The notes below the pieces were generated by a model. The model had not been told where the DNA came from. It searched no databases and was given only the letters and a program-made list of their open reading frames with translations. The translations under genes and the position numbers were made by a program. From a virus, in IMG/VR virus record IMGVR_UViG_3300021142_002226, positions 64,001 through 128,000 of that record: DNA of 64,000 nucleotides; one strand, 5' to 3'. Positions 42,997-55,123 of this stretch are shown piece by piece; position 1 is the first letter of the stretch, and each line of letters starts with the position of its first letter.

Positions 42997-44223
42997 ATGA
43001 GTACGTATAAAATATTAGTTGCCCCTGGCGATAATGCTGGATCTGGTAAATATAGATGTGTAGACCCACATATTAAATTACAAGAATTATTTCCGAATGA
43101 TTTTTTCGTAGAAATAAATAACGCTGTTGATTTCAGTGATTTCACATATTTGAAACAATTTAGCGCTGTGTTTATACACAGGGTTCCCCAACACAATTAT
43201 AAAGATGCTATCAACATCATTACCAATTTAAAAAAACTTGGCATAAAAGTTATTATTGATATTGATGACTATTGGCATCTTGACCCTTCTCACGGTTTGT
43301 ATGAACAAGTGAAAAGAGAGGGTATTCCACAAATATCTATAAACTGTTTAAAATTAGCTGATTTGGTTGTTGTACCAACAAGTATATTAGCTAACGAAGT
43401 TAAACAATTCAACCAGAATGTTGTTGTCTTAGCCAATGCTTTAGATCCAACAGAGGAACAATTCAAAAGTAAACCATCAGAAAGTGAGAAATTAAGAATT
43501 GGTTGGTTAGGTGGTAGCTCACATATCAAGGATTTAGAATTAATAAAAGGTATATCATCAATTGGTGAATACAATAATAAATCACAAATTGTTTTATGTG
43601 GTTTTGATACAAGAGGTAGCGTAAGGCAAATCGACCCTCAAACAGGTCAAGTACAAGAAAGACAAATGAATCCAACAGAAACTGTTTGGTTCATGTACGA
43701 GTTATTCATGACAGATAATTATCGTATGTTAGAGTCATATCCTGATTATGTAAAATTCCTTGTACAATTTAAAGAGGATAAATCTTTTGATGATTCCAAT
43801 ATGCCTTATAGAAGAGTTTGGACTAAATCCATCAACCAATATGCTAAGAACTATAATCTTTTTGATGTATCATTAGCTCCACTTGTAGATAATAAATTCA
43901 ACTTATATAAATCTCAACTTAAAGTTATTGAAGCTGGATTCCATAAGAAAGCAATTATTGCTCAAAATTACGGCCCTTATACTATCGATTTAGTAAGTGC
44001 AATAAAATCAGGTGGTGAAATAGACCCTAATGGTAATTGTTTACTTGTTGACCCATCTAAAAATCATAAACAGTGGCAAAAATATGTTAAGAAGTTAATC
44101 GATAACCCACAAATGGTTAAAGATCTTGGTGAAAAATTATATGAAACCGTAAAAGATAAATACAACCTTAATAATGTTACTAAAACAAGAGGTGAAATAT
44201 ATTTAAATTTATTAAATAAATAA
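42997..44223 (+). CDS. Glycosyltransferase, GT-B fold (GT4-like)
   Basis: IIDIDDYW, RIGWLGGSSH..DL, FDVSLAPL..NKFN..KSQLKVIEAG. Confidence 0.85.
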   Translation: MSTYKILVAPGDNAGSGKYRCVDPHIKLQELFPNDFFVEINNAVDFSDFTYLKQFSAVFIHRVPQHNYKDAINIITNLKKLGIKVIIDIDDYWHLDPSHGLYEQVKREGIPQISINCLKLADLVVVPTSILANEVKQFNQNVVVLANALDPTEEQFKSKPSESEKLRIGWLGGSSHIKDLELIKGISSIGEYNNKSQIVLCGFDTRGSVRQIDPQTGQVQERQMNPTETVWFMYELFMTDNYRMLESYPDYVKFLVQFKEDKSFDDSNMPYRRVWTKSINQYAKNYNLFDVSLAPLVDNKFNLYKSQLKVIEAGFHKKAIIAQNYGPYTIDLVSAIKSGGEIDPNGNCLLVDPSKNHKQWQKYVKKLIDNPQMVKDLGEKLYETVKDKYNLNNVTKTRGEIYLNLLNK

Positions 44224-44224
44224 T

Positions 44225-44818
44225 ATGAAAAGGAAGAACGATAAAAAAACATTTTTAGCAATAGCTAACAAATATAATGTATGCTCAAAAGATTTATTGG
44301 ATTTTTTGGAATTAAATGGTTTATTTGAATGCCCAGCATCAACAACCACATCTATGCATTATGCATATGAAGGTGGTCTTGTTGATCATATAATAGAAAC
44401 AACAAAAATTGCTTTAAACCTTTTAAATGGTATACCAGAACCTTTAAGACCATCTAAAGAAAGCGTTGTAAAAGTTTGTTTTTTACATGATTTAGGTAAA
44501 TTAAATTTATACACACCAAACAAGAGTGAATGGCACAAAAAGAATCTTGGTAAAATGTATGAATTTAACGAAGATCTTGTATCTATGACAAATGGTGAAA
44601 GATCTTTATGGTATATCTATAATTGTGGAAATAACGATAAACTAACACAGGAAGAACATCAAGCAATACTTAGTTTTGATAAAAATGATAATTCAGATTT
44701 GATGGTTAAATGGCACTCTGAATCACTTTCAAGATTATTGAGACACTCTCTTGAATGGGCTATTATGCTTGAAAAAAAAGAATATAAAGATTCAACCAAA
44801 CCTAATACAAATGAGTAA
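44225..44818 (+). CDS. HD-domain phosphohydrolase (YhaM-like)
   Basis: PAS...HYAYEGGLVDH...FLHDLGK...HG/NGERS motifs. Confidence 0.8.
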   Translation: MKRKNDKKTFLAIANKYNVCSKDLLDFLELNGLFECPASTTTSMHYAYEGGLVDHIIETTKIALNLLNGIPEPLRPSKESVVKVCFLHDLGKLNLYTPNKSEWHKKNLGKMYEFNEDLVSMTNGERSLWYIYNCGNNDKLTQEEHQAILSFDKNDNSDLMVKWHSESLSRLLRHSLEWAIMLEKKEYKDSTKPNTNE

Positions 44819-45038
44819 TTTTTTAAACGCTTTAATTGAAAAAAGACCAGAATTAGAATTGAAAGTCAAAGAGTTCGAGCACCCATTGGATAAACAAAAT
44901 AAATACTTTTCTTTGTATATTAATGGTATCGATTCAAGATTTATATTACCTGAAACTGAACTTAATATTGAAGATCCTCAAGAAATTAATGAATTAGTTA
45001 ACATAACTTTAATGTATATAAATAAAAATGGAAAATAA
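44811..45038 (+). CDS. Hypothetical protein
   Basis: The track ORF starts at 44751; the in-frame ATG at 44811 (MSNFLNALIEK...) minimises overlap with the HD gene. Confidence 0.55.
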   Translation: MSNFLNALIEKRPELELKVKEFEHPLDKQNKYFSLYINGIDSRFILPETELNIEDPQEINELVNITLMYINKNGK

Positions 45039-45582
45039 TTTAGATGAATTTAATATCTTAGATCAAGATATCAAAAAAATACTTGAAAACGCAAATAATT
45101 TAGTCAAAGACTGGGTTTATGTTGACAATGTAATGAAACTTAAGATTAGATTTGTAAATCAGTCAACAAATCAGGATCCAGCTTACGCTAAACAAGGTGA
45201 TAGTGGTTTTGATTTGAGAGCATTCTTAAAAGAGGATGCTGTTTTGAAGCCATTTCAAAGAGCTTTAGTGCCAACTGGTTTGTATTTTCAAATCCCAGAA
45301 AACTTTGAGTTACAAGTTAGACCAAGAAGTGGTTTAGCTTTGAAAAATGGTATTACTGTATTAAATACTCCAGGTACAGTTGACTCTGGATATCGTGGTG
45401 AAATTTGTGTAATACTAATTAATCTTGGTTCTGAAGATTTCATAATCAAAAACGGTGATAGAATTGCTCAAGCTGTTATTGCCCCAGTTCAAACAAATAA
45501 TAACCTCGTATTTATGAAGTCTTCTTCGTTAGAATCAAGCGAAAGAGGTGATACAGGATTCGGAAGTAGCGGTGTCAAATAA
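45028..45582 (+). CDS. dut: dUTP diphosphatase (trimeric dUTPase)
   Basis: All five motifs: SGFDL, VRPRSGLA, GTVDSGYRGE, GDRIAQAVI, RGDTGFGSSG. Confidence 0.95.
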   Translation: MENNLDEFNILDQDIKKILENANNLVKDWVYVDNVMKLKIRFVNQSTNQDPAYAKQGDSGFDLRAFLKEDAVLKPFQRALVPTGLYFQIPENFELQVRPRSGLALKNGITVLNTPGTVDSGYRGEICVILINLGSEDFIIKNGDRIAQAVIAPVQTNNNLVFMKSSSLESSERGDTGFGSSGVK

Positions 45583-45878
45583 TGGAATGTTTTAACCAAC
45601 AAATAAGAGCGTATAAAGCCGTAACTGCTGATATATACGACCAAATAATGTATAAAAGAGTATGGTCTGGAGATATGATTCAAGTTGGGGATAAAGTACT
45701 TTATGCATTTGTATTTGACCCAACAGACGATGCTCTGAAATTAATATCTGTGTTAGATAGAGAGTTGGGTTTGATTCAAAACACCTTTGATTTTGTTGCT
45801 TTCAAAAATAAAATAATACCAGTTTTAAAATTTAAAACGGATGCAAAGAATAGGCAATATACAGAGCAAGAAGATTAG
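45582..45878 (+). CDS. Hypothetical protein
   Basis: 98 aa ORF coupled to dut (TAATG overlap). Confidence 0.6.
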   Translation: MECFNQQIRAYKAVTADIYDQIMYKRVWSGDMIQVGDKVLYAFVFDPTDDALKLISVLDRELGLIQNTFDFVAFKNKIIPVLKFKTDAKNRQYTEQED

Positions 45879-46533
45879 TGTTGTTTTTTCTACCAGAGCT
45901 TTGGATGAAGAATATATTGATCATATAAAAATGACATCTGGCCTTGGGAATAAAATTGAGATTTTACCCTTTGTGAATAATGGTGAAAAATCGTTAACAC
46001 AAATATATAACGAAGGTTTAGAAAAAGCAAAAAATGATATTGTTGTTTTTTGTCATGATGATTTAATATTTCATACAGAAAATTGGGGAATGGCAATAGG
46101 TGACCATTTTACAAGGAATCCTGGATTCGGTATAATCGGTATAGCTGGAACTAATAAGTTAGTCAATGGAAGATGGTGGGAAATAAAAGAGAACATGCAT
46201 GGTATTGTTAATCACTCAGATGGTAAAAAAATTTGGGTTAGCGAATATTCTAAACCACAAGGAATTACCCTCAAAAAAATGATCACAATTGATGGTTTAT
46301 TTTTTGCTGTACATAAAAATAGAATTAGATGTACTTTTGATGAAAATGTTAAGGGTTTCCATTTCTACGAATTAACATTTTGTATGGACAATCATATTAA
46401 TGGTGTTAAGATAGGATTATGTACAAATATACGTGTTACACACCTTTCAATTGGCGAAACTAACGACCTTTGGGAAGAAAATAAATTAGTATTTGAAGAA
46501 AAATATGGGCATTTATTACCCTTAGAAGTATGA
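45841..46533 (+). CDS. Glycosyltransferase, GT-A fold (GT2-like)
   Basis: SLTQIYNEGL...DIVVFCHDD...GIIGIAG...TIDGLF...FDE...GFHFY. Confidence 0.8.
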   Translation: MQRIGNIQSKKISVVFSTRALDEEYIDHIKMTSGLGNKIEILPFVNNGEKSLTQIYNEGLEKAKNDIVVFCHDDLIFHTENWGMAIGDHFTRNPGFGIIGIAGTNKLVNGRWWEIKENMHGIVNHSDGKKIWVSEYSKPQGITLKKMITIDGLFFAVHKNRIRCTFDENVKGFHFYELTFCMDNHINGVKIGLCTNIRVTHLSIGETNDLWEENKLVFEEKYGHLLPLEV

Positions 46534-47195
46534 TCAAGTCAATTAAAGAATTAAAAGATATCCATAGAGATGAAGATATTTATGTAATCGGTGCTGGAGC
46601 AAGTGTTGATTATATTAATGAATCTTTTTTTGATGGTAAGATAACAATAGGTACAAATCAAGTTTATAAGAAAATTAAATGTGATTATCTTGTTAGAAAA
46701 GAAACTAAATTTTTGAAACAAGCTTTGAATACTGGTTCAAAAGTTATTGTATCTGAATACGATAGCGGTAATCTTGATACTGGGCAATTTAAATTAAACA
46801 CCAATAAAATTGATCACGAAAACCTTTATTATTTTGAACATCTTGATAATCTACATGATAAGGTTGATACATCTGTTATTGGAACAGATAAATTAGTTGT
46901 TAGTTATTCAACGATTACATCTGCGTTACATCTTGCTGCATATATGGGTGCATTCAATATTTACCTTGTTGGTCATGATTGTGGTTCATTGAATGGTAAA
47001 ATGACATTTGATAAATATTATGATTCAATCAACGATACACCATGGCAAAATTGGAACCAATATAAATCCTGGTTAAAAATCATTGAGTCACAAACTGTTT
47101 CTGTTAGAAATAAACTTGTTGAAGTTTATGAATGTAATGTGGTGTCAATAAATCCTTTTGTTTCATTAAATTTAGAAAACAACCTTTTCATGTAA
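46530..47195 (+). CDS. DUF115/Maf-like putative nonulosonic acid transferase
   Basis: IYVIGAGASV...TIGTN...STITSALHLAAYMGAFNIYLVGHDC is the Maf/DUF115 signature. Adjacent to the neuA-like gene. Confidence 0.65.
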   Translation: MIKSIKELKDIHRDEDIYVIGAGASVDYINESFFDGKITIGTNQVYKKIKCDYLVRKETKFLKQALNTGSKVIVSEYDSGNLDTGQFKLNTNKIDHENLYYFEHLDNLHDKVDTSVIGTDKLVVSYSTITSALHLAAYMGAFNIYLVGHDCGSLNGKMTFDKYYDSINDTPWQNWNQYKSWLKIIESQTVSVRNKLVEVYECNVVSINPFVSLNLENNLFM

Positions 47196-47196
47196 T

Positions 47197-47856
47197 ATGA
47201 GTTTTAAATTTATTATACCAGCCAGAAGAAATTCAAAAGGTTTACCATTTAAGAATCGTAAATTATTTGATATATTTTTAGATAAAACACCTGAAAATCT
47301 ATTAACAGGATTAATTCATTCTCATTCTTTGATTGTATCTACAGATGATGAATCAATCATTGAAAAATGTGTATCAAAGAGTATAAATTATCTTAATAGA
47401 GATAGTAATTTAGCTTTAGACACAACCTCAACTAAAGAAGTTATGATTGATTTATATAACAAGAATTACATTTTTAATGATGATATTGTTGTTATGTTAT
47501 ATTTGACATATCCTGAAAGAAATTGGGATGATATAGGAAATGCTATTGATACTTTTGTCAAAAATGGCTCAAGATCTCTTTTATGTAAAAAAGAAATCAC
47601 AAGTACCCACCCATACCTTTACATGCTTGAAATCGATAAAAATAAAGGTAAACAACTTGTTGCACACGACCTTTATCGTAGACAAGATTATCCAAAGGTA
47701 TTCGAAATTTCACACTATATTTGTATTTTTAAAGGTGGTGAATTAAAAAATTTGAATAACAATCTTTACAACGAGGATACATTTTTTTTACCAATTAACT
47801 CTGTTATAGATGTTGATACTGAAAATGATTTATTAAAATATAATGGGAATTTATGA
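47197..47856 (+). CDS. neuA: CMP-nonulosonic acid synthetase (acylneuraminate cytidylyltransferase)
   Basis: IIPARRNSKGLPFKNRK, VSTDD, RDSNLALD, LTYPER, IDVDTEND. Confidence 0.9.
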   Translation: MSFKFIIPARRNSKGLPFKNRKLFDIFLDKTPENLLTGLIHSHSLIVSTDDESIIEKCVSKSINYLNRDSNLALDTTSTKEVMIDLYNKNYIFNDDIVVMLYLTYPERNWDDIGNAIDTFVKNGSRSLLCKKEITSTHPYLYMLEIDKNKGKQLVAHDLYRRQDYPKVFEISHYICIFKGGELKNLNNNLYNEDTFFLPINSVIDVDTENDLLKYNGNL

Positions 47857-48608
47857 AATGTATATTAGGTATAACAACATATAATAGGAGAAAATATTTA
47901 GAACATCTTTTAGATAGTTTTACACCAACTCATAACACAAATTATGAATGGGTAATCATTATCAATGATGACTGTTCAACAGATGACACAGTTAAATTCA
48001 TTGAAAACTATAATTTTCCATGTGAATATCATTTAATCAAAAATGAGAACAGAAAGGGTGTTTCATGGGGAACAAATAATATTTTTTACTTATCTCAAAA
48101 GATTGGATTTGATGTTTTATTCAGAAGTGATGATGATAATTTTTTCTTGAATAATGGTTGGGATGATCTTTATATTAATGCTATGAATAATTCTGGATTT
48201 AAACACCTAAGTTATTATAATAGTAGATGGAAAGGGGAAAATAAAAAAATAATAGAGAATGATGGTTTAATTGCCGCTTCTAATGTTATGGAATCTATGG
48301 GTAATTTCTACACAATAACACCTGAAATCTTAGAAAAAGTTGGTTACATGGATTATCAAAACATGGGTATGTGGGGTGTTGAACATATTGATTATTCATT
48401 AAGATGTTGTAGGCTCAATTATAACAATCCACAAACATTTTGGTGCCCAAAGGATTGTAAAAAATTTATTGGTATGAAAGCTGGAAATACCTATACAAGC
48501 TCAATGAGTACAATTGAGTTAGCTAATGAAAGGAGCAGAGATTATCAAAAAAGAATGATAGCAAATAATAATAATAGAATTTATATACCGAATCAGAATG
48601 CTCAATAA
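47853..48608 (+). CDS. Glycosyltransferase family 2
   Basis: ITTYNR...INDDCSTDDT...GVS..TN...SDDD...WGVEHIDYSLR. Confidence 0.85.
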   Translation: MKCILGITTYNRRKYLEHLLDSFTPTHNTNYEWVIIINDDCSTDDTVKFIENYNFPCEYHLIKNENRKGVSWGTNNIFYLSQKIGFDVLFRSDDDNFFLNNGWDDLYINAMNNSGFKHLSYYNSRWKGENKKIIENDGLIAASNVMESMGNFYTITPEILEKVGYMDYQNMGMWGVEHIDYSLRCCRLNYNNPQTFWCPKDCKKFIGMKAGNTYTSSMSTIELANERSRDYQKRMIANNNNRIYIPNQNAQ

Positions 48609-49212
48609 TTATTTTGAAAAAATATATTGTATAAACCTTGAAAAAAGAAAAGATAGGTGGAATGAGGTTAGTAAAGAATTTCAAAAAATTAATTGCAATG
48701 TTGAAAAATTTGTAGCAATTGATGGTGAAAAATTGGAACCCAGTCCATACATTTATAGAGGTGAACTTGGTTGTTACATGTCACACATGGTAATCTTAAA
48801 AGACATGATTAATAATAACTATAGTAAAATTTTAGTTTTTGAGGATGATGTTGTTTTCAACGATGATTTTAACGAAAAATTTGATTACTATTATAATCAA
48901 TTACCTAATGATTGGGATATTGTTTATATGAGTGGAAATCATACAACAAGTTTAGAAAAAATTACTGATAACATATATAAAACTAATGGTACTTTAGCTA
49001 TGCATAGTTATTTCATTAGCTTGGAAGGTGCAAAAAAATTATACAACTTATTAGTCGCTAAAAATATGACAGACCCAATAGATGTTATAGGTATAGAGTA
49101 TCAAAAAAATAATAATTGTTATACGTTTAGGCCACACCTTACGTATCAAAAAGAAGGATTTAGTGATATACAGAAAAAAATTGTTAATTACGACCACCTA
49201 TTAAAACGTTAA
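48598..49212 (+). CDS. Glycosyltransferase family 25
   Basis: IYCINLEKRKDRW...AIDG...GELGCYMSH...LVFEDD...SYFISLEGAKKL. Confidence 0.85.
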   Translation: MLNNYFEKIYCINLEKRKDRWNEVSKEFQKINCNVEKFVAIDGEKLEPSPYIYRGELGCYMSHMVILKDMINNNYSKILVFEDDVVFNDDFNEKFDYYYNQLPNDWDIVYMSGNHTTSLEKITDNIYKTNGTLAMHSYFISLEGAKKLYNLLVAKNMTDPIDVIGIEYQKNNNCYTFRPHLTYQKEGFSDIQKKIVNYDHLLKR

Positions 49213-49215
49213 TAA

Positions 49216-50058
49216 ATGAATAAAGTAAAAATTATAGCCGAAATAGGACTTAATCACAATGGGGATATAGATATCGCCAAACAACTTATAATGGTTGCTA
49301 AAGCTGCTGGTTGTGATTATGTTAAATTTCAAAAAAGAAATCCTGATGTTTGTGTACCTGAAGATCAAAAATCTAAAATAAGGCAAACACCTTGGGGTGA
49401 GATGACCTATATTGATTATAGATGGAGAGTTGAGTTTAATCAAGAACAATATCAACAAATACATAATTTTTGTCAAAGTATTGGAATTAAATGGTTCGCT
49501 TCAGTTTGGGACAAAGATTCGGTTGATTTTATACAAAAGATCAACTTGGATAATAACTATCATAGTATAATGAAAATACCATCAGCTCTTATAACCGATA
49601 CCGAATTATGCAAATACGCATCAACAAGATGTAATCAATTACTGATTTCTACAGGAATGAGCACCGAAGAAGAAATTGAAAATTGTGTACGTACTTGTAA
49701 TCCAGATGTTATAATGCATACAAATTCAACATATCCCTGTCCTGTTGAGGAATTAAACTTAAACTATATTTTATGGTTGAAGAATAAATATAGAGATAAA
49801 GAAATAGGGTATAGTGGCCATGAATATGGTTTAGTTACAACATTTGCAACAATACCTATGGGAGCTACTTGGATCGAAAGACACATAACGCTTGACCGTA
49901 ATATGTGGGGTTCAGACCAATCATCATCAATCGAGCCATCTGGGGTTTTTAAATTGGTTAAGGGGATAAGAGATATTGAAAAATCTTTGTCCTTTGCACC
50001 AAGTGAAAGATATGTATTAGGAGGAGAGTTGCAAAAAAAACAAACGCTTAGAAAATAA
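49216..50058 (+). CDS. neuB: Nonulosonic acid synthase (NeuB family) lacking the C-terminal AFP/SAF domain
   Basis: IIAEIGLNHNGD...GCDYVKFQKR, KIPSA, ISTGMS, MHTNSTYP, IGYSGHE, IERHITLDR.MWGSD. Only 280 aa. Confidence 0.92.
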   Translation: MNKVKIIAEIGLNHNGDIDIAKQLIMVAKAAGCDYVKFQKRNPDVCVPEDQKSKIRQTPWGEMTYIDYRWRVEFNQEQYQQIHNFCQSIGIKWFASVWDKDSVDFIQKINLDNNYHSIMKIPSALITDTELCKYASTRCNQLLISTGMSTEEEIENCVRTCNPDVIMHTNSTYPCPVEELNLNYILWLKNKYRDKEIGYSGHEYGLVTTFATIPMGATWIERHITLDRNMWGSDQSSSIEPSGVFKLVKGIRDIEKSLSFAPSERYVLGGELQKKQTLRK

Positions 50059-50064
50059 ATATAT

Positions 50065-50388
50065 ATGAAAATATTTGTAGATATTGATAATACAATTTGT
50101 CATACCGAAGGTACTGATTATAAAAATGCTAAGCCGTATTATGAAAAAATAAATATTATTAATGATCTTTTTGATCAGGGGCATGAAATAACCTATTGGA
50201 CTGCAAGAGGATCTGGGTCTGGTATTGACCATAGTTTTTTAACTATGTTTCAGCTGAAAGAATGGGGTGCAAAATATCATGAACTTAGGTTTAAGAAACC
50301 AGTTTTTGATATATTTATTGATGATAAAACAATCAATTCTATTGACAAATTAGGACTATGGGTTCAAGAACAAGAAAAAAGAAGCTAA
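50065..50388 (+). CDS. HAD-superfamily phosphatase (capsule-biosynthesis type)
   Basis: VDIDNTIC (DxDxT), TARG, KP..D.FIDDK motifs. Confidence 0.85.
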   Translation: MKIFVDIDNTICHTEGTDYKNAKPYYEKINIINDLFDQGHEITYWTARGSGSGIDHSFLTMFQLKEWGAKYHELRFKKPVFDIFIDDKTINSIDKLGLWVQEQEKRS

Positions 50389-51104
50389 CGCACGAGGAAA
50401 TAAACGATGCGTATGTGGATATCGAAACATCACATAATGAAAATATCCTCAAATCAATTCACTTTAATCTAAAGGCAAAAACACAAAATCAAAAGGAATT
50501 AATCAAATTAATTCGTGAGAAAGACATTATCATTTGTTCTGGATTTCCAGGTACAGGTAAAACATATGTCGCATGTGCTATGGCTTTAGAACTATTGAAA
50601 AAAGATCCTAAATACAAGAAAATTGTAATAGTTAAGTCTGTTACACCTTTAAAAGATGAAGAGGTTGGATATCTTAAAGGAACTCTCAGGGAAAAATTGG
50701 AACCATTTATGTATTCTTTTATCCATAATTTCGAAAAAATTATTGGTAAAGATATGGTTGAAAAATTAAAAATTAATGGTTTTTTAGAAGAAATGCCATT
50801 AACTTATATGAGAGGTATCAATATTGATAACGCTATTGTTATTATAGATGAAGCCCAAAATATCAAGAAAACAAACATGAAGACTATCATGACTCGTTTG
50901 GGTGAAGATTCTAAAATGATATTCTTAGGTGATGAAGGTCAAATTGACTTGAAAAACCCACAAGAAAGTTCATTATCATTTATCATTAAAAGATTTAAAG
51001 AAAAAGATTTTTTTGGTACAATTGCTTTTGGAGAAGAAGATATTGTTAGACATCACCTCATCAAAATCATAGAGCAAGGTTTTGATGAAATAAATTATCC
51101 ATAA
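50358..51104 (+). CDS. phoH: PhoH-family ATPase
   Basis: GFPGTGKT, GYLKGTL.EKLEP, MRGINI, IDEAQN, RLGEDSKMIFLGDEGQID, DIVRH. Confidence 0.92.
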   Translation: MGSRTRKKKLTHEEINDAYVDIETSHNENILKSIHFNLKAKTQNQKELIKLIREKDIIICSGFPGTGKTYVACAMALELLKKDPKYKKIVIVKSVTPLKDEEVGYLKGTLREKLEPFMYSFIHNFEKIIGKDMVEKLKINGFLEEMPLTYMRGINIDNAIVIIDEAQNIKKTNMKTIMTRLGEDSKMIFLGDEGQIDLKNPQESSLSFIIKRFKEKDFFGTIAFGEEDIVRHHLIKIIEQGFDEINYP

Positions 51105-51156
51105 ATAGTTTATTTTCGTACAAAGGTTTCATAAATTTATTTAAAATAATAAATTT

Positions 51157-51810
51157 ATGGTTATTGGTATTACAATAAATAATATAATTAGGGATCATAT
51201 TTCTAAGTTATGTGAAGCTTACGAAATCATTACGGAACAACAACCGATAATGCCTATAAACCCTTATGATCTTGAAAAATCATTTCCTGACAAAGCTCCA
51301 CAGGAATTCGAAACTGTTGAGTTATCGGCATCTAATATAGATAATGAGTATGAACTGACACCAATGGATGTTGAAGAAACAAATTTCAACGTAATCGAGT
51401 TTATGTATATGGACGCATCCTTTGAAGTATTTGGTAGGGCTGGTCAATTAGAAAACAATTTAATCACAAAACTTGCTGAACTACAATCTGATGATGTAGA
51501 TATTATTCTTTTAAACAAAGAATCAACAAGGTCAAAAAACGCAACTTTATTCTTTTTGTCCAAGAATAATTTCGACTTGAAACAAATAGTATTTCCTGAC
51601 AAATACGAAGATTTTTACATGTATTGTGATGTCCTTATCACAGATAATCCTAAATTGATGGATATCAAACCAAAAGACAAGATATTAATTAAGGTTGAAA
51701 ACGAATTTAATATTGATTATATATCAGATTTTACTATTATTAAAGTATCTGATATATTTGAATTAATTGAAGAAATAAAAAATAAACATAATTCATTAAA
51801 AAATAGTTAA
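51157..51810 (+). CDS. HAD-fold 5'-nucleotidase-like protein with degenerate catalytic motif
   Basis: N-terminal IGITINNIIRD aligns with IGIDIDGVLRD; C-terminal CDVLITDNP...IKVENEFN resembles the NT5C-like tail. Confidence 0.45.
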   Translation: MVIGITINNIIRDHISKLCEAYEIITEQQPIMPINPYDLEKSFPDKAPQEFETVELSASNIDNEYELTPMDVEETNFNVIEFMYMDASFEVFGRAGQLENNLITKLAELQSDDVDIILLNKESTRSKNATLFFLSKNNFDLKQIVFPDKYEDFYMYCDVLITDNPKLMDIKPKDKILIKVENEFNIDYISDFTIIKVSDIFELIEEIKNKHNSLKNS

Positions 51811-51811
51811 A

Positions 51812-52873
51812 ATGGCTAAAAAACAAGAAGTTCTACAAAATATTGATTCGTCAATAGAAAAAATTAAGAACAAAGAACAAAAAATAATTTTCTTAATACC
51901 AGATACAAAAGGTAATGCGAGAGCAAGTGTTAGTGTTTTGTATAGACAAGCTATGTCTCTTAAAAATTTAGGTTATAGTGTTGCAATGCTAAACGAAAAG
52001 AAAGACTCTATAAATGCATCAACATGGTTGGGTTCTGAGTATGATACTTTGGATCATTTTTCAATTGAAGAAAATAATCTAACAATGGGGCCTCAAGACT
52101 TCTTAATAGTACCAGAAATTTTTGGTAATGTTTTTGAACAACTTGAAAAATTACCGATGGAAAAGATTTTATTTGTACAATCATTTGAATATATGTTAGA
52201 CGCATATGCACCAGGTAAAAGTTTTATTGATTTTGGTGTAACTGAATGTATGACAACAAGTGATACACTTTCTAAATTGATTACAGATGTTTTACCTTTA
52301 AATACGGTACAAGTTATACCAATTGGTATTCCTGACCTTTTTAAACCAACAGAAAATCTTACAAAACCTATTGTAGCAATACATTGTAGAGATGCGAGAA
52401 AAGCTGCTAAAATTATTAAAACTTTTTATTTGAAATACCCAATCTACAGATTCGTATCATTCAAAGATATGCATACTATGACCGAGGTTGATTTCGCTAA
52501 TAACCTTAAAGATTGTTGTTTGTCTATATGGGTTGATGATGATTCATCATTTGGAACTTTCCCAGTTGAATCAATCAAATGTAATGTTCCAGTTATAGGT
52601 AAAGTACCAAACATTATAGGTGAGTGGATGGATGATAATAATGGTATGTGGGTTTACGATGAGAATCAGATTGTTGATTTAACCTCTGCATATGTTAAAA
52701 ATTGGTTGGAAGATAATATTCCTGAAAATTTACAAAACGTATCAACAACTCTTGATGGAAAATATGGTATGGTTGAATTTGAAGAAAAAACTAAGCTGGT
52801 TTATGAATATTATTTCCAAAACAGAATTGACAAGTTGGAAAAAATAAAAGAGGATTATATGAAAACAGCTTAA
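51812..52873 (+). CDS. Glycosyltransferase, GT-B fold
   Basis: LIVPEIF...LFVQS...D.SSFGTFPVESIKCNVPVIG. Confidence 0.75.
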   Translation: MAKKQEVLQNIDSSIEKIKNKEQKIIFLIPDTKGNARASVSVLYRQAMSLKNLGYSVAMLNEKKDSINASTWLGSEYDTLDHFSIEENNLTMGPQDFLIVPEIFGNVFEQLEKLPMEKILFVQSFEYMLDAYAPGKSFIDFGVTECMTTSDTLSKLITDVLPLNTVQVIPIGIPDLFKPTENLTKPIVAIHCRDARKAAKIIKTFYLKYPIYRFVSFKDMHTMTEVDFANNLKDCCLSIWVDDDSSFGTFPVESIKCNVPVIGKVPNIIGEWMDDNNGMWVYDENQIVDLTSAYVKNWLEDNIPENLQNVSTTLDGKYGMVEFEEKTKLVYEYYFQNRIDKLEKIKEDYMKTA

Positions 52874-52874
52874 T

Positions 52875-53576
52875 ATGGATAAATTAATAGAAATATTAAA
52901 AATTATTGGGGGTGACGATTACACAAAACCTCTACCTAATTTATTAAGTTTACCTGAAGAAACACGTTCTCAAATTTTAATAGAATTAAAAAAACTACCA
53001 CAATTTGAAGATACAAAAAATTTTATTTTTTTGGATAGTCCAATTATTATCAAAGATGGTGAAGCGTCAAGCGTACCGACTATGGTTTTAATGAGTCAAG
53101 AACAATTTGATAAAGAAAGTAGTACTCTCAAAATGGAAATGAAATGGAAAGTTATTGATGGTGACAAAGTTGAATTATATCCTTCAACAATGAAATCTGA
53201 AATTTTAATGATGAATGAAACAGTTAAAATTTATTCCATAGGTCTTACCCCAACAACATATACTCCAATTGATGCTCATGAATATGAAGATGTATTGGTT
53301 ACACCATCATTATATGACCCAACTAATTTTGAACCTTTCAGGGAAATCAGGTTGAAATTTTCACCAGAAAAACGTCAAGATATAGCCGCAAAAACAAGTA
53401 CAGAAGATGAGATCGAAAGTTTCAAAAAAGAAATGTATGAAAAATTGGACAAGGCTATAGAAATTTTACTAACTAAGGGTACAAATTATAAACAAAATAA
53501 AAACATTATTGTAAGAATATCTGATGATTCATACGCAAAAAAAACTATAAAACAAAGAGAATTTAAAACTATATAA
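52875..53576 (+). CDS. Hypothetical protein
   Basis: 233 aa ORF in the operon. Confidence 0.7.
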   Translation: MDKLIEILKIIGGDDYTKPLPNLLSLPEETRSQILIELKKLPQFEDTKNFIFLDSPIIIKDGEASSVPTMVLMSQEQFDKESSTLKMEMKWKVIDGDKVELYPSTMKSEILMMNETVKIYSIGLTPTTYTPIDAHEYEDVLVTPSLYDPTNFEPFREIRLKFSPEKRQDIAAKTSTEDEIESFKKEMYEKLDKAIEILLTKGTNYKQNKNIIVRISDDSYAKKTIKQREFKTI

Positions 53577-53577
53577 T

Positions 53578-54423
53578 ATGGCAGAAAATACTAAAACACT
53601 TGACATTACCGTAATTATACCAATACATTCGGTAGCAAATGAAAAAACTGGTGAATACCTTGATATTGCTTTGAATAGCATATCTGTTAATGAAGTAAAA
53701 CCTAAAGAAGTTTTGATTGTTAGATGCGGCTGCGGAGATGTGAGAGAATTTTTGAATGAGTTTGACCTCACCAAATATAACTTGAACGCTCGTGTAATCG
53801 AAAACATAACTGGTAAATCATTCCAGAATCAAATGAATTACGCTGTATCTCAGGTTACAACCGAATATTTCAGCTTACTTGAATTTGATGATGAGTATGC
53901 TTCGAATTGGTTCAAAAATGTTGGTAAATACATGGAGAAAAACCCTGATATCGATATGTTCCTACCTATCGTATCTGATGTTGATCAAAATAATAAATTT
54001 TTGATGATGACAAATGAAGCTGCGTGGGCATATAATTTCTCAGAAGAAATGGGTGTTATTGATAACGAAACTTTAATGAACTTCCCTAATATCAATATTG
54101 ATGGTATGGTTACAAAGAAAGAATCATATTTAGCAGCTGGTGGTATAAAACCTTCAATAAAATTAAGTTTCAATTACGAATTTCTTTTAAGATTTACAAA
54201 GAATGGTTATAAAATCATGGTTGTGCCAAAAATTGGTTACAAACATGTGAACATGAGGACAGATTCTCTGTTTTGGAATTATAAAAATGATCCAGTTGAA
54301 AAAATTTCACCAGATGAAGCGAAATTTTGGATGGAATTAGCGCAAAAAGAATATTACTACAAACAAGATAGAAATGTTATCTATGCGCCAACAACACAAG
54401 ACACAGAAGTAAGTAATGGTTAA
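53578..54423 (+). CDS. Glycosyltransferase family 2
   Basis: ITVIIPIH...Q.NYAV...FSLLEFDDEY...YEFLLR...MVVPKIGYKH. Confidence 0.8.
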   Translation: MAENTKTLDITVIIPIHSVANEKTGEYLDIALNSISVNEVKPKEVLIVRCGCGDVREFLNEFDLTKYNLNARVIENITGKSFQNQMNYAVSQVTTEYFSLLEFDDEYASNWFKNVGKYMEKNPDIDMFLPIVSDVDQNNKFLMMTNEAAWAYNFSEEMGVIDNETLMNFPNINIDGMVTKKESYLAAGGIKPSIKLSFNYEFLLRFTKNGYKIMVVPKIGYKHVNMRTDSLFWNYKNDPVEKISPDEAKFWMELAQKEYYYKQDRNVIYAPTTQDTEVSNG

Positions 54424-55123
54424 TAAAAAAAACAAGAACTATTATGATATCGACCAAGAACAGGCCGTTTTATTATTCTTAAAATCAAAATCTAATGAAG
54501 AAAGAACTAAAATCTATAGAGAACATCTCCAGGATCCAATCAATAAAATGATTGAAATTATCATCAGAAGATATAAACTGGAAAGAAAATCTGAAAATTT
54601 TCCTGATATTCATGCTGACGCTTTATCATTTTTGATGACCAAATTTGATAAATTCAAACCAGAGAGAAACAAAAAATCGTACTCATATTTTGGAACGATT
54701 TGCAGAAATTACCTAAAAGGTGAATTGATTAAAGAATATAAAAAAAATAGGTTACATAAAGATATCGAAACAGCTGAGAGTGAATTACTTGAGAGAGCTG
54801 ACCAAAAATACAGAATTGATGATGACGGATTTAACACCAGCGTTTTTCTCGAAAAATTGATGGATAAGTTAAAAGAAGAGATAAATTCTGAAAATTTGAA
54901 CGATAATGAGTTCAAAGTAGGCCATTCATTAATTAAAATTTTAGAGGATTGGGAAGAACTTTTTGCTGATGCCAGTAACAAAAGTCACACTAAATTCAAT
55001 AAAAATCTAATATTGCTATATATTAGAAATATGACTGGACTATCAACAAAAGAGATAAGAAACAGCATGAAAAGGTTCAAAACTCTTTATTTTATTTTCA
55101 AAAACGATTTTATAGAAGAGTAA
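54416..55123 (+). CDS. Phage RNA polymerase sigma factor (T4 gp55-like, late)
   Basis: Region-2-like 'DALSFLMTKFDKFKPE...KSYSYFGTICRNYL' (compare F..E...NPFAYFT....N.F). Confidence 0.65.
   Translation: MVNKKNKNYYDIDQEQAVLLFLKSKSNEERTKIYREHLQDPINKMIEIIIRRYKLERKSENFPDIHADALSFLMTKFDKFKPERNKKSYSYFGTICRNYLKGELIKEYKKNRLHKDIETAESELLERADQKYRIDDDGFNTSVFLEKLMDKLKEEINSENLNDNEFKVGHSLIKILEDWEELFADASNKSHTKFNKNLILLYIRNMTGLSTKEIRNSMKRFKTLYFIFKNDFIEE

Follow-up and report, generated by a model that had tools for sequence, protein, structure and literature searches.

The window is a 64,000-nucleotide stretch (positions 64,001 to 128,000) of IMGVR_UViG_3300021142_002226, the 190-kb record of a large, uncultured T4-like phage whose completeness is estimated by CheckV at 64%. 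Between positions 46530 and 50388 of the window, six co-oriented genes overlap or almost abut one another (Table 1). A sequence-only reading had described them as a contiguous cassette for the synthesis, activation and transfer of a nonulosonic acid, and we recovered all six at those positions with the expected domain or fold matches. From the dUTPase gene (45028) through the PhoH gene (51104) the intergenic gaps range from -38 to +6 nt, an operon-like packing, and the 3' end of the HAD gene overlaps phoH by 31 nt. The Glyco_tranf_2_5 gene directly upstream, outside the span of that reading, overlaps the Maf-like gene by 4 nt and holds the same upstream position in 16 related loci. The GT2 protein has a DDD motif at residue 93 and the GT25 protein a DWD motif at residue 105. 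No membrane spans are predicted in any cassette protein, so the proteins would all be cytoplasmic, and the acceptor would then be either a protein of the virion or, in the host, a glycolipid or a protein that is glycosylated on the cytoplasmic face.

Table 1. Genes of the cassette and the adjoining upstream glycosyltransferase gene, in window coordinates.
Feature	Length (aa)	Coordinates	Strand	Matches
GT-A glycosyltransferase (Glyco_tranf_2_5)	230	45841..46533	+	PF13712, 90.6 bits
Minimal Maf/DUF115-fold protein	221	46530..47195	+	PF01973 (MptE-like/DUF115), 22.8 bits, below the cut-off of 34.6; phrog_4603, 5.7e-6
NeuA-like CMP-nonulosonate synthetase (cytidylyltransferase)	219	47197..47856	+	CTP_transf_3 PF02348, 35.4 bits (cut-off 22.6)
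GT2 glycosyltransferase	251	47853..48608	+	PF00535, 46.1 bits; phrog_2456, 8e-23
GT25 glycosyltransferase (LOS/LPS-type family)	204	48598..49212	+	PF01755, 87.6 bits; phrog_2835, 6e-19
SAF-less NeuB-family PEP-condensing synthase	280	49216..50058	+	PF03102, 213 bits
Capless HAD phosphatase	107	50065..50388	+	PDB 9iqw, 6.4e-13; phrog_1238, 8.8e-26; TIGR01689, 27.6 bits (below cut-off)

The NeuB-family synthase retains intact active-site motifs (IAEIG-NH-G, KFQ, KIPS, STG, NSTYP, SGHE and ERH), and its KFQK, GYSGHE and ERHITLD...GSD..S.EP block presumably resemble those of animal NANS. It scores 203.9 against NCBIfam TIGR03569 (cut-off 399.65) and 154.4 against TIGR03586 (cut-off 340.25), and its top PDB match is a pseudaminic acid synthase. 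As had been noticed from the letters of the window, it has no AFP/SAF domain, and there is no SAF match anywhere else in the 190-kb record. The SAF domain supplies Arg314, which is essential in N. meningitidis NeuB. R314 is a conserved SAF residue (PMC8208679). A NeuB phylogeny, to which the sequence-only reading had looked for the class of sugar, places the window protein, one of a 'VKFQKR / GYSGHE' clade, in a clade made up mainly of viral sequences (SH-aLRT 99%); no characterised enzyme anchors that clade. The closest cellular relative is a SAF-less NeuB of Bacteroidia (49% identity) that adjoins a KdsC-family HAD; the closest Bacteroidia homologues have a fatty-acid hydroxylase as partner, and the roughly 5-7 kb covered on each side of them showed no NeuA. 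In every phosphatase-linked NeuB examined, those adjoining true KDN-9-P phosphatase orthologues included, the K-x-Q/T motif is followed by K-R (KFQKR or K[LF]TKRD). This signature is absent from SAF-less PDB 6ncs and from the SAF-bearing, SDH-type paralogues of the same Pelagibacter and SAR202 genomes, which hold several SAF-type NeuB paralogues. We regard the window NeuB as a candidate nonulosonate-9-phosphate synthase.

The NeuA-like enzyme is encoded by the sole CTP_transf_3 gene of the 190-kb record and has an N-terminal IPARxxSKGxxxKN and a C-terminal DVDT motif. Its best PDB matches are CMP-Neu5Ac synthetases (6ifd, 5.8e-9; 1eyr, 2.6e-8), while its best NCBIfam model is PseF, at 43.9 bits far under the cut-off of 205.7. 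The small HAD protein is a candidate nonulosonate-9-phosphate phosphatase in which motifs I-IV can be read as DIDNT, T45, K77/78 and DD86-87. Its family is found in 391 phage isolates, from T4-like coliphages and Acinetobacter phages to cyanophages, and just three of the 391 have a NeuB match. The HAD is therefore not specific to the pathway, and its adjacency to NeuB in close relatives may partly be inherited synteny. The cyanophage members sit in heptose-type nucleotide-sugar clusters.

We measured linkage around NeuB relatives in 80 IMG/VR loci, each spanning ±6 kb. Within this distance a HAD gene was found in 63 loci, a NeuA gene in 55, either one in 75 and all three genes together in 43, with HAD and NeuA always on the NeuB strand. 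Gene order varies: HAD is adjacent downstream of NeuB in 24 loci and upstream in 6, and NeuA is adjacent upstream in 21 and downstream in 9. NeuB/HAD/NeuA is thus a recurrent module, common in uncultured phages. Among cells, SAF-less NeuB relatives are directly followed by CTP_transf_3+HAD fusion proteins (L089, L096, L102 and L108), and in a SAR202 genome (L091) NeuB, NeuA and HAD form an operon in that order, the HAD sharing 48% identity with that of the phage. FkbM methyltransferases and other tailoring genes also lie next to relatives. The recurrence of the module and the cellular NeuA-HAD fusions favour a 9-phosphate route to a CMP-nonulosonate, and the self-contained logic of synthase, phosphatase, CMP activation and transferase that had been proposed for the cassette is supported by its reappearance in varied orders in viruses and cells.

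The earlier statement that the window lacks NeuC and Pse/Leg precursor genes extends to the whole record, at its 64% completeness. We found no NeuC, DegT, SDR, NanE, ROK or type II PMI in these 190 kb, and no match to PF02350, PF01041 or PF01370. NeuC and intact DegT are also absent from two 100%-complete relatives, although one of them (G405) contains a DegT-like fragment, which is weak and interrupted by a stop. The flanks of about 5 kb examined around cellular NeuB + NeuA-HAD pairs contain no enzyme that makes ManNAc-6-P.

For the first gene of the cassette, named from the sequence as a Maf/DUF115-like transferase, the structural model agrees as to the fold. In VIA-align, the AF2 model (pLDDT 88) matches Maf 5mu5 at Z 13.2 (Maf residues 260-508), the M. 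jannaschii MptE HPPK at Z 13.1, Cst-I/II at Z about 11 and GT29 at Z about 9; GT42/GT29 sialyltransferases occupy the ranks down to Z 8.6, and unrelated folds drop to Z 4.4. Most of the 442 homologues carry PF01973, and phrog_4603 is annotated 'alpha-2,3-sialyltransferase'. The phage protein shares a GT-A-variant fold and NeuB and NeuA partners with the Maf transferases that add nonulosonates to flagellin (DUF115, PDB 5mu5) and with the Campylobacter jejuni GT42 sialyltransferases Cst-I/Cst-II. It differs from Maf (about 630 aa) in being the 221-aa core domain alone and in having invariant motifs of its own (H104, H134 and GHDCG at 148-152), and neither flagellin nor another known acceptor is apparent for it. 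The gene was present in 21 of the 80 related viral loci, and small soluble GT29 proteins, akin to bacterial GT29-like sialyltransferases, are encoded next to NeuA-NeuB in 26; only 3 loci had both. The Maf-like gene is no more than 6 kb away from NeuB in 21/21 loci, which themselves span only ±6 kb around NeuB, and among the 18 that gave a BLASTP match it adjoins NeuA in 13 and HAD in 5. GT29 genes are carried by close relatives (NeuB 70-77% identity), and none is present in the window's genome. To our knowledge, characterised GT29 enzymes use CMP-sialic acids. The GT29 proteins would thus stand in functionally for the Maf-like protein of the window, and this interchange supports the view that the latter is a transferase and that the sugar is truly of the sialic-acid type; the Maf-like protein is a candidate CMP-nonulosonate transferase.

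Our preferred reading, to which we give a probability of roughly 0.6, is that with this cassette the phage brings its own, self-sufficient pathway to a sialic-acid-type nonulosonate in activated form, together with enzymes for its attachment. That a CMP-nonulosonate is made and transferred is likely, and that the route runs through a 9-phosphate is more likely than not. The SAF-less NeuB would condense PEP with a host hexose-6-phosphate to a nonulosonate-9-phosphate, the small HAD would remove the 9-phosphate, and the NeuA-like enzyme would convert the nonulosonate to its CMP-sugar. The minimal Maf/GT42-fold protein would then pass the sugar to an acceptor, on the virion or a host glycan, built with the help of the soluble GT-A enzymes (GT2_5, GT2 and GT25). 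The most economical guess for the NeuB substrate is mannose-6-P, giving KDN-9-P, with ManNAc-6-P, giving Neu5Ac-9-P, as the alternative; KDN as the product is a parsimonious guess, at somewhat less than even odds, and not a call.

The KDN pathway of Bacteroides thetaiotaomicron (Wang et al. 2008, as cited in PMC6200933) consists of the KDN-9-P phosphatase BT1713, the KDN-9-P synthase BT1714 and a CMP-KDN synthetase. The proposed phage route follows the same three steps: a NeuB-family enzyme would join PEP to a sugar 6-phosphate, a HAD enzyme would remove the phosphate and a CMP-transferase would activate the product, with no epimerase needed. Both kinds of NeuB have K-R after K-x-Q/T. The equivalence of the two sets of enzymes that the sequence-only reading implied is not supported. 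Bacteroidia NeuBs adjoining an equivalog-level KDN-9-P phosphatase (NF058599) are 344-350 aa long, contain SAF, are of the GYSDH type, have extra residues inserted behind helix 1 and share only 32% identity with the phage NeuB; the absence of SAF is therefore no signature of KDN. The phage HAD, too, is of another kind than the KdsC/KDN9PP-type C0 HAD of Bacteroides: it is a 107-aa TIGR01689-like protein of a family widespread in T4-like phages, hardly any of which have a NeuB match. Of the earlier proposal that the phage makes and attaches an activated 9-carbon sugar from host metabolites, the cassette logic and the linkage stand, while orthology to the Bacteroides KDN enzymes does not.

A host might instead supply an unphosphorylated precursor (ManNAc or 2,4-diacetamido-2,4,6-trideoxyhexose) for Neu5Ac, legionaminic or pseudaminic acid. 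The phage would then do no more than boost the final two steps, and its HAD would be a general phosphatase of T4-like phages with an unrelated task. The breadth of the HAD family and its cyanophage heptose-type clusters, the PseF model (far below cut-off as it is), the pseudaminic acid synthase match and the SAF-type NeuB paralogues of Pelagibacter and SAR202, since hosts of this sort may supply precursors, all point this way. We consider it unlikely, however, given that the NeuB-HAD linkage persists across many gene orders and distant viral clades, that HAD is fused to NeuA directly after the same NeuB type in cells, that the phage NeuB has the K-R signature in common with phosphatase-linked NeuBs, and that it lacks the domain that is the source of Arg314; GT29 in relatives also points to a Neu/KDN-type sugar rather than Pse/Leg. 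A ManNAc-6-P substrate leading to Neu5Ac through its 9-phosphate, as in animal NANS/NANP/CMAS, is slightly less probable still. It would fit the NANS-like motifs (a likeness we assume), the CMP-Neu5Ac synthetase matches and the GT29 enzymes, but the record lacks a NeuC/GNE-type epimerase, a ROK kinase and NanE, the two complete relatives have no NeuC, and the cellular flanks of about 5 kb have no source of ManNAc-6-P, which is not known to be a general bacterial metabolite.

Equal Z-scores for MptE (an archaeal pterin pyrophosphokinase) and Maf, the sub-cut-off Pfam score, the lack of Maf's flanking domains in only 221 aa, and a thymidylate synthase encoded by the same phage, which brings folate-linked metabolism, would suit an MptE-like pyrophosphokinase or other nucleotide-binding enzyme, the CMP-sugar being used by an island GT-A enzyme or a host transferase. 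The proximity of the Maf-like gene to NeuB in all of the ±6 kb loci where it was detected and its place beside NeuA or HAD, its near mutual exclusion with GT29 genes in the same island, the PHROG annotation and the sialyltransferases filling the structural ranks make this improbable. Least probable of all is that the clade turns some other sugar phosphate, such as heptose-7-phosphate or aminohexose-6-phosphate, into a non-canonical ulosonic acid: the uncharacterised NeuB clade, the heptose-type clusters of cyanophage HAD relatives and the neighbouring FkbM and tailoring genes are compatible with it, but partners of the GT29 and NeuA types hint at a sugar near the sialic acids, and no kinase or isomerase of a heptose pathway stood out among the annotated neighbours of the cassette.

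Our literature search found no paper describing a NeuB/HAD/NeuA phage module. Animal NANS/NANP/CMAS and the Kdn-9-P and CMP-Kdn synthetases of Prymnesium parvum (PMC6200933) share with the proposed route a 9-phosphate intermediate, its dephosphorylation and CMP activation; a dedicated phosphatase has not been identified in P. parvum (PMC6200933), and the phage NeuB differs from these synthases in lacking the SAF/AFP domain. Petit et al. 2018, a phylogenomic survey of the GT29 family, makes no mention of phages or viruses (PMC5811610). The cyanomyovirus P-SSM2 has LPS clusters (PMC1079782), and the Lake Biwa viral genome LBVG_26 has neuA/neuB/neuC (bioRxiv 10.1101/655167). These too are lytic T4-like or uncultured phages with sugar-synthesis and transferase genes, read as remodelling the cell surface. 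Those reports are at the level of annotation and involve NeuC/Pse-type precursor genes, whereas the module in the window lacks an epimerase, has a phosphatase linked to it and brings its own sialyltransferase-fold enzyme.

The most far-reaching reading of the cassette, to which we assign a probability of roughly 0.3, is that large T4-like phages of environmental origin produce a sialic acid of their own (KDN or a relative) by means of a virus-specific lineage of synthases lacking the C-terminal antifreeze-like (SAF) domain, and cap their own virion proteins using stripped-down Maf-like or GT29 sialyltransferases. Sialic acids and their kin are best known as sugars of animals and pathogens that serve in host mimicry and recognition. 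Binding or cleaving these sugars is known from phages; making them is not.

The source record (190,177 bp, 64% complete by CheckV, GC approximately 29%) encodes a contractile-tail T4-like phage, with a tail sheath protein (phrog_23, 3e-53), a family-B DNA polymerase, a helicase and PhoH. All six genes of the sequence-only reading were recovered as one co-oriented run, which forms the core of a larger glyco-island (see table). From the dUTPase gene to PhoH, the gaps between successive genes range from -38 to +6 nt, and the additional glycosyltransferase gene GT2_5 overlaps the first cassette gene by 4 nt. No hydrophobic spans were found in any cassette product. Scans for promoters, terminators and the T4 late promoter (TATAAATA) gave counts equal to the shuffled expectation and so carry no timing signal. 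The block PhoH-217-353-GT2b-235 is kept in relatives; the genes lying between dUTPase and NeuB differ. This variation of the dUTPase-PhoH island among close relatives resembles the variable gene content of surface-antigen loci, and lipooligosaccharide assembly is the typical context of GT25 enzymes according to the Pfam description; neither point discriminates between virion and host targets.

Positions of the features discussed (window coordinates unless a locus, L, or the whole record, G000, is named)
Feature	Position	Strand	Size	Remarks
Glyco-island	42997-55123			cassette at its core
Glycosyltransferase			408 aa	phrog_7162; in island, before HD-domain protein
HD-domain protein				5' of cassette, followed by dUTPase
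dUTPase	45028			5' of cassette, followed by GT2_5
GT2_5	45841-46533	+		extra GT-A gene
Six-gene cassette	46530-50388	+
Maf-like	46530-47195	+	221 aa
NeuA-like	47197-47856	+	219 aa
GT2	47853-48608	+	251 aa	PF00535 46.1 bits, above Pfam cut-off; DDD at 93
GT25	48598-49212	+	204 aa	PF01755 87.6 bits, above Pfam cut-off; DWD at 105
NeuB-like	49216-50058	+	280 aa
HAD phosphatase	50065-50388	+	107 aa
PhoH	51104			3' of cassette
Three unknown proteins			217, 353, 233 aa	3' of cassette, after PhoH
Second GT2	53578-54423			in island
Unknown protein			235 aa	last in listed island order
Second NeuB-like gene in viral relatives	L021:8406-9140; L023:2230-2979; L063:7445-8197		244-250 aa
GT29 examples in viral relatives	L027:4782-5381; L025:7442-8110; L021:302-1045; L003:97-1248
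Bacteroidia NeuB and hydroxylase loci	L121:5374-7193; L122:5054-7546
Thymidylate-synthase-family gene	G000:C1:147043-148251		402-aa reading frame	outside window

We scanned IMG/VR for relatives of the synthase and found 90 loci with a NeuB relative at 49-100% identity, 80 of which were retained. Within 6 kb either side of NeuB, profile searches of these 80 loci found a small HAD gene in 63, a NeuA-like gene in 55, one or the other in 75, and all three genes together in 43. Every linked HAD or NeuA gene lies on the NeuB strand, and gene order varies: the HAD gene immediately follows NeuB in 24 loci, lies further downstream in another 32 and precedes it in 6, and NeuA directly precedes NeuB in 21 and directly follows it in 9. 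Because the NeuB-HAD-PhoH order is syntenic among the close relatives of the window, those loci are not independent evidence, and what carries the case for linkage is the variety of arrangements among distant viral clades, together with fusions in cellular genomes. In four cellular loci (L089, L096, L102 and L108) the gene directly after NeuB is a fusion of CTP_transf_3 and HAD domains of 383-414 aa, and in a SAR202 locus (L091) the order is NeuB, NeuA and a 105-aa HAD sharing 48% identity with the phage protein.

The synthase lineage is very abundant in metagenomic data: at E <= 1e-10, at least 8000 proteins of the database match, and the best 120 NeuB clusters are all 269-299 aa long with PF03102 alone. 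Protein-atlas clusters that match the phage NeuB best are 65-100% viral. Among phages that have been isolated or deposited the lineage is nearly absent, with a NeuB match in 3 of 50,697 records; the Maf-like protein had no match among the same records. In a maximum-likelihood tree (quick search), 63 viral NeuBs form one clade with 99% SH-aLRT support within the SAF-less group, and paralogues of the SDH type, which bear a SAF domain, branch outside that group.

The phage synthase scores 213.1 bits on PF03102 (cut-off 22.1), spanning profile positions 1-236 of 241. Its translation retains the blocks IAEIGLNHNG, VKFQK, MKIPS, ISTGMS, HTNSTYP, YSGHE and IERHIT intact, and in alignments to NeuB, PseI and SpsE from PDB these fall on metal-binding His residues and PEP/sugar-binding motifs. 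We take the roles of the active-site residues (the metal-binding His pair and the PEP/sugar contacts) to be those of the N. meningitidis structure. The equivalog cut-offs for N-acetylneuraminate synthase (TIGR03569, 203.9 versus 399.65) and pseudaminic acid synthase (TIGR03586, 154.4 versus 340.25) were not reached. Canonical bacterial NeuB, PseI and LegI carry a C-terminal SAF domain, whereas the phage protein, already noted from its sequence to lack one, stops 22 residues past the barrel, and PF08666 (SAF) has no match in NeuB or anywhere else in the 190-kb record.

Two motifs, VKFQKR and G[YF]SGH[EH], are common to the viral NeuBs and their SAF-less cellular relatives; the SAF-bearing paralogues that Pelagibacter and SAR202 genomes encode alongside them read K[FL]Q[TCL]x and GLSDH instead. 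A K-R pair immediately follows the K-x-Q/T motif in every phosphatase-linked NeuB that we examined, including the set resembling BT1714 (the KDN-9-P synthase of Bacteroides thetaiotaomicron), and is absent from the SDH-type paralogues and from PDB 6ncs. We propose the pair as a candidate phosphate-binding element of phosphatase-linked NeuBs. A 'TYxxxR' loop was dropped as a signature of phosphate substrates on account of its inconsistent presence, and PDB 6ncs was rejected as a structural stand-in for the phage clade because, although SAF-less, it is of the KFQAY/GYSDH type. Some viral loci have a second NeuB-like gene beside the main one; it is 21-26% identical, is missing the usual motifs and sits on a long separate branch of the tree.

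The NeuA-like protein matches PF02348 (35.4 bits, cut-off 22.6), its N-terminal IPARxxSK...KN motif reads IIPARRNSKGLPFKN, and a DVDT motif is present too. Its best solved relatives in PDB are CMP-Neu5Ac synthetases (6e-9 and 3e-8), with no KdsB match at or below 0.01, and the PseF equivalog cut-off was not reached (43.9 versus 205.7). No other CTP_transf_3 gene is found in the record. The small HAD protein has motifs I-IV in its translation (DIDNT at 6-10, T45, K77/K78 and D86-D87) and matches PDB 9iqw at 6.4e-13, an entry for which we found no paper. At E <= 0.01 it matches neither the KdsC nor the KDN-9-P phosphatase model (TIGR01670, NF058599), and its sole NCBIfam matches are to TIGR01689 (27.6 bits, cut-off 162) and NF046079 (17.2 bits). 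This family of HAD proteins is not specific to the nonulosonate pathway, since 391 deposited phages carry it (177 of them Escherichia phages) and any NeuB match occurs in only three deposited records. Carriers include T4-like coliphages, Acinetobacter phages and cyanophages; in the last, the gene is clustered with heptose-type pathway genes for a kinase, a nucleotidyltransferase and epimerases. The family is widely annotated as 'phosphoheptose isomerase' in phage records (for example, NC_047838.1 168012-168320), a label that does not fit a HAD phosphatase.

The candidate transferase scores 22.8 bits on PF01973, below the cut-off of 34.6, and matches PHROG 4603, 'alpha-2,3-sialyltransferase', at 5.7e-6. 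Its tight family comprises 442 proteins in the database, mostly with PF01973, and in it H104, H134 and GHDCG are invariant; close homologues at 44-84% identity mostly have a precomputed PF01973 match. We modelled the protein with AlphaFold from 28 sequences (mean pLDDT 88.2) and searched for structural matches using VIA-align. The highest scores were to the Maf central domain 5mu5 (Z 13.2, 176 aligned residues, rmsd 3.9) and the MptE pterin pyrophosphokinase (HPPK, Z 13.1), followed by Cst-I 2p2v (Z 11.6), Cst-II (Z 11.5) and animal GT29 enzymes (Z approximately 9), with the nearest unrelated fold at Z 4.4; Foldseek was concordant. The model thus predicts a Maf/GT42 sialyltransferase fold (GT-A variant 2). 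Given the tie with MptE, the fold by itself cannot tell a transferase from a pyrophosphokinase; it is the genomic context that favours a transferase. The Maf-like gene was found in 21 loci, always at most 6 kb from NeuB in loci that consist of 6-kb flanks on either side, and among the 18 with a BLASTP match NeuA was a neighbor in 13 and HAD in 5.

The second type of transferase appears in the relatives. GT29-family genes, which are small and encode soluble products, are present beside NeuA-NeuB in 26 of the 80 viral loci, and 9 of 10 tested pass the Pfam cut-off with scores of up to 117 bits; the genome of the window has none. Maf-like and GT29 genes occur together in only 3 loci. Among relatives whose NeuB is 70-77% identical, some have GT29, others have the Maf-like gene and two have both. 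That one kind nearly always excludes the other speaks for the two being functional alternates. The characterised GT29 enzymes known to us act with CMP-sialic acids, which makes a Neu/KDN-type sugar more likely than a Pse/Leg-type one.

The absence of NeuC and Pse/Leg precursor genes, described for the window, extends to the whole 190-kb record at its 64% completeness. Record-wide searches found no UDP-GlcNAc 2-epimerase (NeuC/LegG type), DegT aminotransferase, SDR dehydratase/epimerase, NanE, ROK kinase or type II PMI. Because the record is incomplete, five large relatives were searched as well, two of them 100% complete (G405, 299 kb, with a NeuB 77% identical, and G406, 380 kb). NeuC is missing from both and DegT from G406, and the DegT match in G405 is a weak, stop-interrupted fragment. 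A further relative (G407) does have a NeuC-like gene; we rejected it as a gene for Neu5Ac synthesis because its CapE/FnlA-like and RmlD-like neighbors suit a FucNAc-type trio better. In sum, no step making ManNAc-6-P was found in the phage, in the complete relatives (searched for NeuC and DegT) or among the flanking genes examined in cellular loci. Mannose-6-phosphate as substrate, with KDN as product, would be an economical guess from this gene content.

The more specific proposal, that the cassette is equivalent to the KDN enzymes of B. thetaiotaomicron, found no support at the level of orthology. We represented the BT1714 lineage by NeuBs adjacent to equivalogs of NF058599, the model for the KDN-9-P phosphatase BT1713. 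This model scored above its cut-off in B. thetaiotaomicron only among 14 control genomes and in 22 of 401 sampled Bacteroidia genomes, and in 11 of 12 loci examined the adjoining gene was a NeuB homologue with GYSDH. The three full-length examples are 344-350 aa and carry a SAF domain. The Bacteroides-type lineage has K[LF]TKRD, GYSDH, an insertion after helix 1 and a KdsC-type phosphatase as neighbor, whereas the phage NeuB has KFQKR, GYSGHE and no insertion, at 32% identity. In other words, the lineage that includes the characterised KDN-9-P synthase does have the SAF domain, the phage enzyme is no orthologue of that lineage, and the notion that a missing SAF domain marks a KDN synthase was discarded since the NF058599-linked enzymes carry one. 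A role for the glycosyltransferases in modifying DNA sugars was considered and dropped: the thymidylate-synthase-family gene of the record gives an ordinary ThyA-type match (286.8 bits), and we obtained no sign of a hydroxymethylase or of hypermodification. In that gene, approximately 130 nt lie between the two parts matched by the Pfam profile, which suggests an insertion.

Under the best-supported reading of the cassette, the synthase would condense PEP with a host hexose-6-phosphate, the HAD enzyme would remove the phosphate from the product, and the NeuA-like enzyme would activate the sugar with CTP. The Maf-like enzyme would then transfer it, with the acceptor glycan built or extended by GT2_5, GT2 and GT25. 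Since all components are soluble, glycosylation would have to be cytoplasmic, with phage proteins or lipid-linked or protein acceptors of the host as its targets. Such a module would provide a lytic phage with an activated nonulosonate from central metabolites. If the more far-reaching reading, with capped virions, is right, aquatic viromes would commonly contain 'sialylated' phage particles, and the clade would be an uncharacterised family of nonulosonate-9-phosphate synthases. An active module would bear on how particles or infected cells appear to grazers, other phages and immune lectins, as well as on the origin of GT29 sialyltransferases and the function of the large SAF-less NeuB group. 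Because the enzymes are small and soluble, the pathway is open to direct in vitro testing.

Phage genomes with neuA/neuB/neuC (bioRxiv 10.1101/655167) or LPS clusters (PMC1079782) have been noted in metagenome papers. SAF-less NeuBs of environmental bacteria were noted, with function unassigned, in a large survey that did not cover viruses (PMC8208679), and a paper on bacterial GT29 is silent on phages (PMC5811610). We found no description in the literature of a phage module of the 9-phosphate type (a sugar-6-phosphate condensed to a nonulosonate-9-phosphate) that carries its own sialyltransferase-fold enzyme.

In a scan of cellular genomes, one per species, SAF-less relatives at 33-44% identity were found in Pelagibacteraceae, SAR202 Chloroflexota, Bdellovibrionota, Nitrosomonas and many proteobacterial MAGs. 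Their neighbors are polysaccharide export and tailoring genes, and no ManNAc-making gene is among the flanking genes. Three NeuBs from bins assigned to Planctomycetota, an Alphaproteobacteria SAG and Woesearchaeota share 52-65% identity and nest within the viral clade; their contigs are probably phage DNA that ended up in MAG or SAG bins, or derive from single cells sampled during infection. The closest cellular relative found is a SAF-less Bacteroidia NeuB (297 aa, 49% identity) directly downstream of a 173-aa KdsC-family HAD, whose matches to the KdsC model (140.9 bits) and the KDN-9-P phosphatase model (131.9 bits) both stay under cut-off. The next gene encodes a fatty-acid hydroxylase. Two Bacteroidia loci, L121 and L122, have a SAF-less KFQKR-type NeuB followed by an OlsE-like fatty-acid hydroxylase; a KdsC-family HAD precedes NeuB in one of them, and NeuA was not detected within approximately 5-7 kb either side of NeuB in either. 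This pairing may mean that a nonulosonate is used in lipid-linked form, or that the product is another one. Finally, a 20-kb contig from a Pelagibacteraceae SAG has three NeuB paralogues, two of the SAF type (340 and 354 aa) and one SAF-less and KFQKR-type (286 aa), from which one SAR11-type cell may be able to make several different nonulosonates.
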